Source: Reclinomonas americana ATCC 50394
Lineage: Eukaryota
Length of the DNA: 35,620 bases
Direction: 5' to 3'
Assembly: GCA_048213135.1 (NCBI GenBank)
Contig: PS015064.1
Coordinates: 117,060 to 152,679 of the forward strand
The position numbers and the translations under genes were made by a program. The stretch's first letter is position 1; each line of letters starts with the position of its first letter. Below, piece by piece: positions 11,395 through 34,857 of the stretch. Below the pieces are notes generated by a model. It did no database searches, was not told where the DNA came from, and was given only the letters and a program-made list of their open reading frames with translations.

Positions 11395-14300
11395 TCAATC
11401 ACGACGCACGTTCGTAAAATCTGGCAAAAAGGAACCCACAATTCGCTGCAACAGCGGCTGCGCTGGTGGGCCGGCATGTGCCCCGTACTCTCTCGCCTCT
11501 CCGTCCTGCTTCAAGCTCCACATCCGCATCGTACGGTCGTTTCCACCAGCTACGATCCAGCGTCCACACGGCGACATTGCTGCCGTGAGCACCGCGCCAC
11601 CAAACGCATCGAGTCGATGTACTTCCTTGCCGGCACCATCACCAATCACCGACCACATTCGCACGGTGCCGTCGTCGCTAGCCGACAGGATGTGGCTCCC
11701 GTCGGCAGTCAGTGTCACAGAATTGATCCACTTGGCGTGTCCGACTAGCTCGCGCACGCATTCGCCAGTCGAGGCAGACCAAACACGCACCGTCGCGTCG
11801 GCGCTTCCCGACACAATGTGCTCGCCGTCGGGCGTGACGGCAACAGAGACCACATTGCCACGGTGCCCACGAAGTCGTCGCACTTCACGACCACGAGGTT
11901 CGACAGTGGACCACACATGTAATGTGTCGTCGCTGTTGGCCAGTACCACGTGCTGTCCGTCAGGCGTCAGGGCCACGCCATTGAGAAACTGTGTGTCGAC
12001 TGCTATGCATTGTAGCTCCTCGCCACTTGCTAAAGACCACACGCGCACAGTTTCGTCAAAACTGCCCGACACGATACGCTCGCCGAGAGAGTCCACCAAC
12101 ACTGACGTCACGCGATCGAGATGGCCGGCGCACTGCCGTATCTCTTCGCCAGTGCTTGCCGACCACACCCGCACCGTTCGGTCGTAGCTGCCGGAGACCA
12201 CGAATCGACTGTCGGGCGTCGTGGTCACAGTGCCGACTTCGCCTGTGTGGCCGAGCAGCCGTTGCAACTCTTCGCCGTTTGTCACAGACCATATGCGCAC
12301 TGTACGGTCTTGACTGCCAGTCACAATGAGGTTGCCATCCGACGAGACCGACACCGACAGGACCCAGCCAGCGTGGCCGTTGAGTCGTCGTACTTCCTCG
12401 CGGCTGGCCAGTGACCACTGTCGCAATGTGCGATCCCAGCTTCCCGACACGATAAGCCGACCATCGGGTGACACCGACAGTGATCCCACAACTTCCGAGT
12501 GACCCTCGAATCGACGAACCTCTTCGCCGCTGGCCAACGACCACACGCGAATCGTCTTGTCGTGACTTCCGGACACTACGTACTGCCCGCCGGGGAGCAT
12601 CGACAGGGTCCACACCCAACCAGTGTGACCTTCCATACGGCGCACCTCTTCGCCTGTCGCAAAAGACCACACTCGCACCAACTGGTCTTCGCCACTCGAC
12701 ACGATGTACTCGCCGTTTGGTGACACCATCAGCGACCACACCCAACCGGCAGCCACGTTCACGCATCGCACTTCCACGCCAGTGGCGACGGACCACACTC
12801 GCAAGTTGCCATCTTCGCCGCCAGAGACTACGTGCTGGTTGTCGGGGGTAACCGCGACTGCACGCGCTTCGCCAGCGTGCCCACGCAGTTTCCACAGCGC
12901 ATCGCCGCTAGCGAGCAGCCAGATGCAGACGACGGAATCGCGACCGGCAGACGCTGCGTGCTGTCCATCCGTCGAGACCGCCACAGCATTTACGGGACTG
13001 GAATGGCCCACCATCTCTCGCACTGGTTGATCACCACTGATTAAGGACCACATGCGCACTGAGCGATCTTCGCTGGCAGAAAGCACATACTGGCCGTCGG
13101 TCGTCACTGCCACTGACGTCACACGGTTCGTGTGGCCCACAAACTTCTTCACCTGCTTGCCACTGGTGAGTGACCACACGCGCACAGACCGGTCGTCGCT
13201 ACCGGATACCACGTGCAGACCATCCGGAGTCACCGCCACCGACGACACGCGATCCGAGTGACCCTCTATGGGCTTCCTCGGCCACATGACGCCCTCAACA
13301 TGGGCATCACGAAAGTCGGCATCACGAGCAAACGCCAAAGACAAGTTTGCATGGCTCAGATCCGCTCCGCACCACACCGATCCGTGCATCACAGCGTCGC
13401 GCAAATCCGCACCGCGCACTCGAACACCTGACAGATCGCGTGCCGAGAAGGAAACCTCCGCCAGGCAGAGGGCGCTGGCGGCGCTCGACGCCACGGTACC
13501 GAGCCATTCCTCCGATCGCGAGCGAGACAGTGCGATAGAGTGCCACAGTGACTTCTGCAACGCGTCGTCACCGCGCAATCGATCCGCAACAAACGAAAGA
13601 ACCGAGTCGAGTCCCTTCCACCACAAGGCAAGCCAGTGAGTTGATGATGACGACAACACAGAAGATAGCGGCCACGCGTGCTCAACTTCATCGCCACCGG
13701 CAAGTGCTCGTCGACCAGTGAACCCGGATCCGGAGCCGACACGATCCATACGATCCTACGCAACAAGAAAGTGATACAACTGAGTGATGCGTAGAGTAAA
13801 GAACTCTCAGCTGTCGCCTAACCTGCAAGTCAATGTGCTCCAGCGCCAGAAGTTGCACATCAGCCATCCATGCCTGTGCCGCAAAGAATTCCAGCACCGA
13901 CTTGTGCATGAACTCCACTCGCTGCCCCATCGCGCCGAGTTGGCTCCACTTGAGCAAAGCCTTGAAGGAGTGAGAGAGAGAGAGAGAGATGAACTCAGAT
14001 TGCATTTCCAGGTGTGTAACGAGGGATAAGAAAGAGCATAAAGGCAACAGAGCAAGATAGACAGCAATGTACAACCACGCAATCATACACGAAACTGCAC
14101 GAACTACGGTATTCTGCACGTCATCGTCACGCGAAAACCGATCGGACCAAAGATGCCACATGGCGGAGCCATGCTGTGAATGCAGCGTTAGTGCATCAAG
14201 AGGCAACTTATCGGAAAACAAGACGAGTCGAATACCTCGCTTTGCTGCACAAATGTAAGCGAGTGCTGCATCATGTCGCTGGCCAACTCGGCACAAAAGT

Positions 14301-32000: not shown

Positions 32001-34857
32001 CACCTCCACCACCACCACCACCACCACCACCACCGTCGGCTGTCAATGGCAGGCCACGCAGTCAGTCGCTCACTCCGAATCCGGCCTTGTCGTTCTCACT
32101 GTGCTTGATTGACGGTACCGAGTTTGTCTTCACAATGACGGACGCGGTGTCGGTACCCGCCTACTCGGATCCAGTGGATGAGGCGCGGGATTGGAAGCAG
32201 GACTTGGCCAGCGCGTATTCAGCTCTCGAGGCGCAAGCAGCTCGCCGTTGCGTGTCTACTTGCTTTCGCGCTCGTACGGCAGCAGGGTCAAAGTGGGTCT
32301 GACCTTGTGGTCTCGATAGTGGATACGCCAGTGTCGATGTCGCAGGCAGCATGTGAACGTGAGCAGCTGCGGCGGTACATTCCCGTGCGCCTCGGCGAGG
32401 AGAGTCGCATGAAGCACGAGGAGGAGGGTGCGTCGTTTGTGCACACGGTCTCTCTCTCTCTCTCACTGTCTGTGTAAGGAGCTCATCATTGTCTCGACAG
32501 TTATTCGCAAGGAGTTCTTGGAGGTCGATGGCTTGACGCAGGAAAAGCTGGAGGAGCTGGAGGAGCTCAAGGCCCATGTTGCGTGTCGCACATGTTTGGG
32601 TAACTCAAACTTTTAATGACTCCTGACGTCCCTTGGTACTCTCAGCTGGCCTACCTGACGGGTGAGCGCGACGAGCTCAAGGTGCGCCTGCAGCTCATGT
32701 CGGAGCAGCGACACGACTTGAAGAAGGAGATTGGCGAACGATGCGGCCGATTCACGGATCTGGACCAGCAGTTGCGGCGCGGGCTCGGAATTGTTGCAGC
32801 TTGTGTTGTGGCACTCATCCGCGCGCGTGTTTGTTCATCTCGCAGAATATTTACTCTGATGTCAGAGGACACGTTTTTGCACCACAATGTGTTTGTGGCA
32901 CTGGCAGAGCCGCCACCAGTGTCGCAGGAGGTGCTGGCGAGTCGCAACGCTTCCTCGACTGTGCTGTCGTCGCTCCTTGGTGGCGGCAGTGGCGCTTCGT
33001 CGTCGTCGTCGTCACGGAAGCGCACCGGCAGCTCCAATCATCACGGTGGTCACGGCACCGGCGGGAGTGGCAAGCACAATAAGCGGTCGTCGGCGTCCAG
33101 CACCGCCTCCACGGTGTCCATGGCCAACTCCTCGTCGGCCGCCCCTGTTGCGGTCAAGCCGTCGGGGCGTCCAGTGCCGCGTGCCCCACTATCGGTTTGT
33201 GGGGGCAGGGAAGGGGGAGGGGTAGGGAAGGGGAAGGGGGAGGGGTAGGGAAGGGGAGGGGGAGGGGGAAGGGGAATGGAAGGGGAAGGGGGCAGTGTGT
33301 GGGTAGAGAAGAGAGCGAGAGGGCAACGAGAGTAAAGAGAGCGAGAGCAGAGAACGGGAGGGGCAACAGGGGAGAACGAGAGCGGACAACGAGAAGGGGG
33401 TGAGCGAGAGGGTAGCCGCGAGAGGGTAGCAGCGAGATGGGAGAGCGAGAGGGGAGAGCGAGAGGGTAGAGCGCGGCTTCCTGTCGTCCATTTTTCACCT
33501 CACCCTCTCCTTCTCCCTCTCGCTCTCCTTCTCTCGTTCTCCCCTCTCGCGTTCACCTCTCTCTTTCATTCTCTCTTGCTCCCCATTTCTCGTTGTTCCT
33601 TCTGTCGCTCTTTCTCGCTCCCCCCTTCTCACTTCCCCCTCTCGCTCTACCCCTCTCGCTCTCCCCCTCTCACTCTCCCCTTCTCTCTCTCCCCTCTTGC
33701 TCTCCCTCTCGTTCTCCCCCTTTCACTCTCCTTCCCTTCATCCCTCTCGCTCTCCCTCTCNNNNNNNNNNNNNNNNNNNNNNNNNNNNNNNNNNNNNNNN
33801 NNNNNNNNNNNNNNNNNNNNNNNNNNNNNNNNNNNNNNNNNNNNNNNNNNNNNNNNNNNNNNNNNNNNNNNNNNNNNNNNNNNNNNNNNNNNNNNNNNNN
33901 NNNNNNNNNNNNNNNNNNNNNNNNNNNNNNNNNNNNNNNNNNNNNNNNNNNNNNNNNNNNNNNNNNNNNNNNNNNNNNNNNNNNNNNNNNNNNNNNNNNN
34001 NNNNNTCGCTCTCTCCTCTCGTCACTCTCCCCCTCTCGCTCTCCCTCCGTTCCCCCTCCTCGCTCTCCCCTCTTGCTCTCCCCTCTCGTTCTCCCCCTTT
34101 CGCTCTCCCCTTCTCGCTCTCCCCTCTCGTTTCCCCTCTCGCTCTCCCCCTTTCGCTCTCCCTTCCCCTTCACCCCCTCTCGCTCTCCTTTCCGTGATTA
34201 GCTCACCTTTGCCCGTTTTACAACGCAGGTCGACGCCGACCAAGACTTTGCGCTGCAGCGCGTGCAAATGCTGGAGCTCGAAGCGCAAAACAATCGCCTG
34301 CGCCAAGAGCTGGAAGACACACGAGCGCGGCTGAGGGACTTTGAGGAAAAGGTACGCTCCGCCACCGGCTGCTCCCTCTCTCCCCCGCACAACGTCCTCT
34401 CACGCGTCTCTCTTCACCGCCCGCGCGCACAGTTCACAGCCAGTCGCCAGTCTTGCACCAGTGAGCCAATATCCATCACCGAGGCGTTTGCCTTCGAAGA
34501 CCGCGAGGACGACGACGACGACACCGGCAGCGACGACGACGATGGTCACCGCAACGATGCCAAGCTGGTCGGCGTCGATGACGATGAGGAGGACGAGGAC
34601 GAGGGGAGCGGCAGTGGGCGCGCTTTTTCACCACATGCCACCGACCGGTCGTCAGTGACGACCGACTCCACACCTCCGCACCGATTGTCAGCCGGCAGCA
34701 CCAAGGTACGTGGGAAGAGAATGGCTGCTTGTTTCGTCCGACTCACACGAGTTGGCCGCAGACCGATGGCATTGACATTTCGCCTCCACCACCGTGCCAT
34801 TTGGGTGAAATGTCGGTGCACTCGATCCTGGCCACGGCGCATGTCGACCACCAATGA
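26048..34857 (+). CDS. Multi-exon (about 25 or more) SH3 - Pro-rich - WW - RhoGEF(DH) - PH - coiled-coil protein
   Basis: His-rich N-terminus. SH3: VVARYKFVGEQATDLAMERGDRIRVIE|VGEENDWWVG...GSFPSNY. WW: LPPGWEQYANEQGHPYYFNRHTQETTWLHP. DH: RDLAFAELLSTEHAYVSSL...KIFSN|LKQILELQ...LGQTFLKM and DYEQLKRALDCVRDIAG|FINSKKR. PH: RRLLRHG...ERECLLFSDLLVF. Coiled coils follow. The central DH exons are missing, presumably in gap 30663-30837. Confidence 0.85.

Follow-up and report, generated by a model that had tools for sequence, protein, structure and literature searches.

Does Reclinomonas americana recognize a share of its introns with the U1 small nuclear RNA (snRNA) displaced by one nucleotide from its usual place on the 5′ splice site? 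The question is raised by a 35,620-nucleotide stretch of DNA from strain ATCC 50394 (GenBank assembly GCA_048213135.1, contig PS015064.1, positions 117,060 to 152,679 of the forward strand), here called the window and numbered from its first letter, in which a first-pass annotation had picked out 12 introns that begin with GTT, lack the usual G at intron position +5, and carry G at +6. Each of these donors was found where it had been reported: GTTGCG at 23545(-), 25566, 28247, 28446, 29646, 32247, 32578, and 32771, GTTTCGT at 14095(-) and 29099, GTTACGT at 31653, and GTTTTGT at 15418(-). The number of introns placed in the window came to 41 rather than the earlier estimate of about 45, three of them with ambiguous donors, and the class of 12 was kept, at 29% of the total. 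The sites lie in four genes, not in three as first counted: eight in a gene encoding SH3, WW, DH, and PH domains (SH3-WW-DH-PH), two in a NACHT-WD40 gene, one in a PCIF1-like gene, and one in a minus-strand gene for which a profile search returned no family match. Junctions throughout were placed from the 35.6 kb of DNA, domain homology, and one related protein (P0001). The window is about 56% G+C outside N and, as part of a draft scaffold, contains many runs of N and microsatellites of (GA)n and (GT)n.

The GTT donors probably form a real second class. On balance, we consider it somewhat likely that they open ordinary U2-type GT-AG introns with a discrete donor class, H/GTT[G>T>A]CG[T] (a slash marks the cut), on which U1 sits shifted by one nucleotide. 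G is found at -1, the last exon base, in 2 of the 12 members versus 28 of the 29 other donors, and at +5 in none of them (C in 11, T in one) versus 26/29. At +6 all 12 have G, whereas the other donors have T in 17/29 and C in 3/29, and T follows at +7 in nine of the 12 versus 7/29. On recount, these figures agree with the features first ascribed to the class, namely no +5G, +6G throughout, mostly +7T, and a base other than G at -1 in 10 of the 12. The covariation that had been proposed, with +6G and +7T set against -1G and +5G when donors are split by their +3 base, is strong among the 41 donors of the window, and Fisher tests of T at +3 gave p=1.9e-5 against +5G, p=5.4e-7 against +6G, and p=2.5e-5 against -1G. 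Three further donors with T at +3 keep both -1G and +5G and thus read in the ordinary register: G/GTTTGT at 31381 and 33195 (+) and G/GTTAGG at 13822(-). With them, T stands at +3 in 15 of the 41 donors, a share that is unusually high for a eukaryote. The two classes had been described as one base apart, GGTGCGT and GTTGCGT, with the cut moved by one nucleotide; when shifted by one base, the GTT class does agree with the ordinary consensus at each position except +5, which is C in 11 of the 12, versus C at the equivalent +4 in 11/29 ordinary donors, where A or T also occurs.

Counts of the motif point in the same direction. GTTGCG is the commonest donor hexamer in the catalogue; within the 15,847 nt of gene spans it occurs 15 times in the sense and twice in the antisense orientation, and of the 15 sense copies eight open an intron, versus an expectation of 0.49 for donors drawn from random GT sites. 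The corresponding shares of sense copies are 5/15 for GTGCGT and 4/9 for GTGAGT. Over both strands of the window, GTTGCG showed no enrichment (22 observed, 24.5 expected). The broader pattern GTTNCGT is enriched in the window, with 29 copies versus 15.2 +/- 4.1 in shuffled sequence and none of 100 shuffles reaching that number, although three of the matches are copies in paralogous genes. At the level of sequence, then, the GTT observation holds and is far from chance. Two further sites belong beside this class. A possible 13th member, GTTGCGTGG at 17695..17703(-), stands exactly at the end of a long open frame (...LSAVECL), and matches GTTGCGT, with simple repeats and a stretch of N beyond it. 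The otherwise ordinary-looking intron at 25086-25153 (+) of the PCIF1-like gene, tcg/GTGCCGTC, has no +5G, G at +6, and T at +7, and resembles GTGCGT with an extra C; its donor may represent a second kind of one-base offset, with a bulge at +4/+5.

Where these introns are cut can be read largely from the continuity of the coding frame. Gene models were assembled from coordinates only. A signal-free gene finder was dropped after it skipped real exons. The PCIF1-like model has seven introns and eight exons and gives an open product of 336 aa once the introns are removed; the SH3-WW-DH-PH model has 24 introns and gives open products of 608 aa and 693 aa that flank an assembly gap. In both models, an end-to-end open frame requires each GTT intron to be excised exactly as /GTT...AG/. 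The first-pass view that several members are forced by frame or homology, while a few could be read through, translates into eight of the 12 that are forced and four that are in-frame and stop-free. We also tried a cut one base later (G/TT...) and rejected it: at the forced sites it breaks the frame if the acceptor is not moved beyond the AG as well. As judged from frame with the acceptor fixed at AG/, cleavage at the eight forced sites would fall one base upstream of the junction that a shifted U1 register implies. The motif, its position at intron starts, the frame continuity, the covariation, and the homology at one junction were all obtained within the window, and from these we infer that splicing follows the boundaries given here.

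The cleanest case is the 68-nt intron at 32578..32645 (+) of the SH3-WW-DH-PH gene, cat/GTTGCGTG...CAG. Read-through meets a stop after 12 codons, and when all donors were enumerated, GTTGCGTG alone among the GT donors kept the next exon in frame. For the final intron of the PCIF1-like gene (25566..25624 (+), cat/GTTGCGTG...CAG, 59 nt, read-through stop after seven codons), only /GTT together with the CAG at 25624 joins the frame of the last exon. The exons on its two sides are colinear with PCIF1 structures, the last one with residues 457-491 of 6irx and the previous one ending at residue 452, and an intron with a frame change is therefore required here. Alternative GT donors at this site would lose the GxQH motif conserved in PCIF1 structures or leave a 41-nt intron. 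Two introns of the SH3-WW-DH-PH gene are similarly constrained: 28247..28313 (+), cct/GTTGCGTC...CAG, 67 nt, with a read-through stop after seven codons, and 28446..28505 (+), gca/GTTGCGCA...CAG, 60 nt, with a read-through stop after 14 codons and no GT at +6. At 28247, the single other in-frame GT donor lies 27 nt upstream, has no +5G, and costs nine residues. Enumeration of all GT and GC donors at 25566, 28247, and 28446 yielded only frame-compatible alternatives that are non-consensus.

At four other sites in the SH3-WW-DH-PH gene, different boundaries can also be made to fit the frame. Two rival cuts recur: a GC donor at +3, found only at the eight GTTGCG sites, and a GT at +6 paired with a later acceptor. 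Some members may be misplaced boundaries, with the real donor at the downstream GT at +6 or elsewhere and another acceptor in use, or may be in-frame coding sequence, which would leave a class of fewer than 12. Frame-compatible alternatives, given as donor and acceptor offsets, exist at 29646 (+5 and +5), 32247 (+5 and +26, or +27 and 0), 29099 (+5 and +11), and 31653 (+16 and +4). The intron at 29099..29167 (+), aca/GTTTCGTC...CAG, 69 nt, follows right after the WW domain and has a read-through stop after nine codons; donors upstream of it would cost the WW motif its second W and its P, and those downstream depend on a second AG. At 31653..31716 (+), ggg/GTTACGTC...CAG, 64 nt, read-through meets a stop after 34 codons and a frame change is needed, the rival being GTCAGT at +16 with a GAG acceptor 4 nt beyond the CAG. 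The intron at 32247..32319 (+), gcc/GTTGCGTG...TAG, is 73 nt long with a read-through stop after 18 codons, and that at 29646..30277 (+), atc/GTTGCGTG...CAG, is 632 nt long, lies within the DH domain, and has a read-through stop after 27 codons. Most of the alternatives need a second AG after the branch site or a non-consensus donor, 32578 is left without any GT alternative, and those at 25566 and 28247 are costly as described above. We consider a smaller class quite unlikely.

The four members that are not forced are better called candidates. The first, 32771..32845 (+), gca/GTTGCGGC...CAG, 75 nt, is in the SH3-WW-DH-PH gene and contains a branch-like CACTCAT. The second, 15347..15418(-), gag/GTTTTGTT...CAG, 72 nt, falls in the NACHT domain, where reading through it makes the match to the NACHT profile 77 residues long over 63 profile positions. 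The third, 13961..14095(-), gca/GTTTCGTG..., contains a (CT)n microsatellite and has an uncertain 3′ end, which gives lengths of 102, 135, or 147 nt and counts in favor of a smaller class. The fourth, 23486..23545(-), acc/GTTGCGCT...CAG, 60 nt, lies in the gene with no family match, has a branch-like GCTCAT, and is 41% T and 6% A. All four can be read through in frame without a stop, as a smaller class would have it. However, the in-frame members are T-rich and A-poor, as introns are, with intron-like 3′ ends.

The DH domain allows the cut at 29646 to be judged by homology as well as by frame. The exon that ends at 29645 matches positions 2-44 of the RhoGEF profile, and it also matches LARG up to ...IFSN and Tiam1 up to ...LFGN. 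In DH alignments comprising one DH protein and five solved DH domains, this N or its equivalent is followed by I, I, F, I, L, and I, respectively (6/6 hydrophobic), and a second hydrophobic residue comes three positions further on. A /GTT junction joined to CAG/ gives IFSN-L-KQ-I-LELQ, which fits this pattern, whereas the +5 and +5 alternative puts R at the hydrophobic position and the GC donor at +3 inserts one residue. As far as alignment can tell, DH homology favors the /GTT cut over both nearby rivals. Because whole-gene frame continuity, this homology, and lengths, branch motifs, and acceptors like those of ordinary introns agree, the conclusion that the 12 GTT sites would behave as GT-AG introns cut before the G is supported. 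Two observations on the same gene should be noted. The middle of the DH domain is absent from the model between ...GQTFLKM and SEPELRDYEQL... (30388-30947 (+)), where we would expect the conserved DH catalytic core; a run of N at 30663-30837 flanked by long (GT)n occupies part of this region, and this assembly gap presumably holds the missing exons. The intron at 31903-32052 (+), which separates the two parts of the PH domain, is ambiguous, with 43 nt if cut at AAG/GTGTTC or 103 nt if cut at GAG/GTGAGAGC; the latter option, used in the model, removes a (CCA)n poly-proline tract.

The residue inserted at 29646 bears on another reading of the eight GTTGCG sites, which treats them as GC-AG introns or as tandem donors of the GYNGYN type whose cut lies three bases downstream (GTT/GCGTGT), the upstream GT being incidental. 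Moving the cut to the +3 GC donor leaves the frame unchanged at all eight, GCGTGT looks like GTGTGT after the usual change of T to C, and GYNGYN tandem donors have been described (PMC1779574); in form, GTTGCG fits that motif, its GT and GC lying three bases from each other. Unlike such tandem donors, however, four of the 12 class members are not GYNGYN, having T or A at +4 and no GC at +4/+5, and would be left unexplained, and at 29646 homology favors the upstream GT only, the extra residue falling in the conserved DH helix pattern. Also unexplained would be why GTT precedes all eight GCG sites in all three codon phases. A related protein provides a further argument. Word-based searches of the protein collections with two exons gave no match from this organism or a close relative, whereas an exhaustive protein search recovered P0001, a 129-aa protein from one 2,036-bp Logan contig, with 56% identity over the 63-aa exon (E 3.7e-13). 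It runs from ...KIFAN through R-F-V-FFFFF to ...SAANFGVAKD, and the next exon of the window, read in the same wrong frame, gives SEANPGVAKD. Because P0001 reads this next exon out of frame, it represents a gene call that runs unspliced through the orthologous intron. Provided that the intron phase was kept, its codons for R-F-V (CGT-TTY-GTN) imply that the relative's donor would be GTTTYGT, a subtype already listed among the 12; they permit no GC at +4/+5, which would exclude a GC-AG intron. Two metagenome scans for DNA of the organism behind P0001 found no relative. We regard the GC-AG reading of these eight sites as highly improbable.

The bodies and 3′ ends of GTT-class introns are those expected of U2-type GT-AG introns. 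All 12 start with GT and end with AG, all 12 have a YTNAY branch-like motif within -45 to -6, as do 21 of the 25 ordinary introns measured, and frame or homology is restored at eight of the 12. A strict CT[GAC]A[CT] in the same interval is found in 8/12 and 17/25, respectively. Acceptors are CAG in 10 of the 12, with one TAG and one AAG, and CAG in 23 of the 25 ordinary introns. Lengths run from 59 to 135 nt, with the 632-nt intron at 29646 in addition, and the median is 69 nt versus 68 nt. We considered two other origins for the class and rejected both. Minor (U12-type) introns have 5′ ends of the RTATCCTT type, and none of the 12 GTT contexts resembles this motif. An introner-like repeat family would share more than what was seen by eye, where the introns have only their first six to eight bases in common.

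How might such donors be recognized? The class reads as the normal G/GT[GA]NGT moved one base to the right. In the shifted alignment, +1G would stand in the place of -1G, +3T in the place of +2T, and CGT at +5 to +7 in the place of +4 to +6. Most likely, U1 snRNA would pair with GTT sites one nucleotide out of its usual register, and the later steps, involving U6, U5, and Prp8, would then cut at the sole GU available, one base upstream of the junction of the U1 register. Because C is near-obligatory at +5 of the class, we suggest that the U1 of this organism may have G at its fifth base (ACGUAC-like), in which case CG at +5/+6 would anchor the weakened helix. Both the register and the sequence of U1 are what we infer from the donors; a search of the window with Rfam matched no family, with no U1 or U6 gene within the 35.6 kb. 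The first-pass suggestions that the lineage uses the shifted register at roughly a quarter of its introns, and that this may imply variant U1/U6 or altered U1C/Luc7/Prp8, are extrapolated from a single stretch of this size. Precedent exists in human shifted-register 5′ splice sites (ref. 10 in PMC4856993), which start with GU, have no +5G, and carry their consensus bases one position later, with U1 thought to sit one base out and cleavage occurring at the GU. Unlike the 12 of 41 introns here, the human sites are rare, and the same source assigns shifted and bulged registers to a small share of 5′ splice sites. The consensus in the window is GTTGCGT and not of the AAGU type.

The same bases could be accommodated by U1 in its normal register with an extra U bulged out at +3 (or +2), GU(U)GCGU, leaving introns and cut unchanged. 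The sequence can be read equally well as GT, T, and consensus +3 to +6, and the bulge register at these positions, one extra nucleotide after GU and then consensus bases, has been shown experimentally for human sites (ref. 16 in PMC4856993). Moreover, in duplex folding the two members that have -1G (31653 and 15418(-)) fold in exactly this way, +1G pairing with C8 and +5C with position 5 of U1. However, a bulge leaves U1 C9 free, and -1G should stay favored, whereas it drops from 28/29 to 2/12; and a bulged base need not be T, whereas T is present in 12/12. The loss of -1G fits a shift better than a simple bulge because in the shifted helix +1G would occupy the partner of -1G in the normal one. 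We judge a bulge unlikely, though not far-fetched. Folding with a standard U1 5′ end gives the GTT class a mean of -1.2 kcal/mol versus -7.3 kcal/mol for the ordinary donors: pairing is barely present, with +1G on C9 in 3/12 and +1G unpaired in 6/12, five of these six pairing +6G with C4, and all of these helices weak. With the hypothetical G5 U1, the pairs +5C:G5 and +6G:C4 form in 12/12, at -5.1 versus -8.8 kcal/mol.

An altered U1 also features in another arrangement, in which a second, dedicated U1 species is fully complementary to GUUGCGU, with A in place of C at the base facing +2U in the shifted alignment, and two U1 populations serve one donor class each. The class is discrete rather than a continuum among the 41 donors, and in the shifted alignment its consensus is one base from the main one, both of which speak for this arrangement. 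In Entamoeba and Mastigamoeba, moreover, lineage-specific U1 5′ ends are reported to track the donor consensus (bioRxiv 10.1101/2022.06.08.495308, in the text portion available): the donors of Entamoeba are GUUUGU(U) and its U1 has co-evolved to AACAAAC, and Mastigamoeba balamuthi has a U1 ACGUAC, with G at position 5, and the donor GUGCGC. The Rfam search of the window, however, gave no snRNA gene in support of a second species, and one U1 used in two registers is simpler. We give a dedicated second U1 little chance. The comparison with these Archamoebae is instructive nonetheless. Their donors, like those in the window, are lineage-specific with T at +3 or C at +4, and the window shares with them GTTTGT (31381 and 33195) and a preference for C at +4; the matching changed U1 5′ end is theirs. 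In each of those organisms, a single consensus is read in the normal register, and the words "shifted," "register," and "bulge" are absent from that text portion of the preprint. The Mastigamoeba donor also has C at +6, where the window has T in 17/29 and C in 3/29. Literature searches for any organism in which GTT donors form an abundant class led to the human register work and the Archamoebae preprint and to nothing else, and in their accessible parts neither describes such a class.

Several points weigh against a shifted U1 as the explanation, or against a class of the full size. The shifted helices are almost unpaired with standard U1, and the mechanism leans on a hypothetical U1 variant. 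One gene, SH3-WW-DH-PH, holds 8 of the 12 sites. The catalogue reuses the sites of the first-pass annotation, and G/GT was preferred at ambiguous donors, such that the contrast between the classes was partly shaped by choice. A codon-usage score gave no separation of exons from introns, and 23545(-), 32771, 15418(-), and 14095(-) could be coding. The intron at 32247 has a rival donor that does bear +5G, C/GTACGG, 27 nt downstream; the resulting intron of 46 nt would be below all 41 placed introns in length. Finally, the argument from P0001 works back from protein to codons.

Other features of the window lie apart from the GTT-class introns. An intronless gene for a 465-aa flotillin (SPFH/Band 7) is found at 2437-3831(-) amid genes rich in introns. 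The product itself is absent from the protein collection; the clusters closest to it in the atlas are from bacteria or archaea, with one from a giant virus, and the gene may have been acquired horizontally. Three tandem paralogous WD40-repeat genes occupy 1-2300, 4370-7900, and 8330-11100 (+). Their WD40 frame ends in ...VLFRC and a stop in all three copies, and conserved small exon/intron-like segments lie downstream of each. Tandem repeats of 170 bp and 144 bp, with 89% matches, are located at 18720-19265 and 19503-19815, with a run of N between them, in a stretch that is apparently gene-free.

In human genes, U1 pairing in a shifted or bulged register is a known but rare exception, one that matters for interpreting splice-site mutations. 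We tentatively raise the possibility, toward which we lean less than toward the shifted class itself, that this lineage routinely runs two U1 registers, with between roughly a quarter and a third of the introns using a displaced helix anchored on CG at +5/+6, possibly through a G5 U1, and the GU being chosen afterwards by the catalytic spliceosome. If so, the choice of register would be a fixed, heritable property of each intron. The relative represented by P0001 appears to keep the class at the same intron position, and a switch of class would shift the reading frame. Recognition by U1 and choice of the cut site could then be uncoupled as a normal, genome-wide mode of splicing, and the organism would lend itself to studying how the cut is fixed while U1 is displaced by one base. 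In a genome of this kind, gene finders trained on a single donor model would place roughly a third of exon ends wrongly, and the same question arises for relatives with unusual donors.

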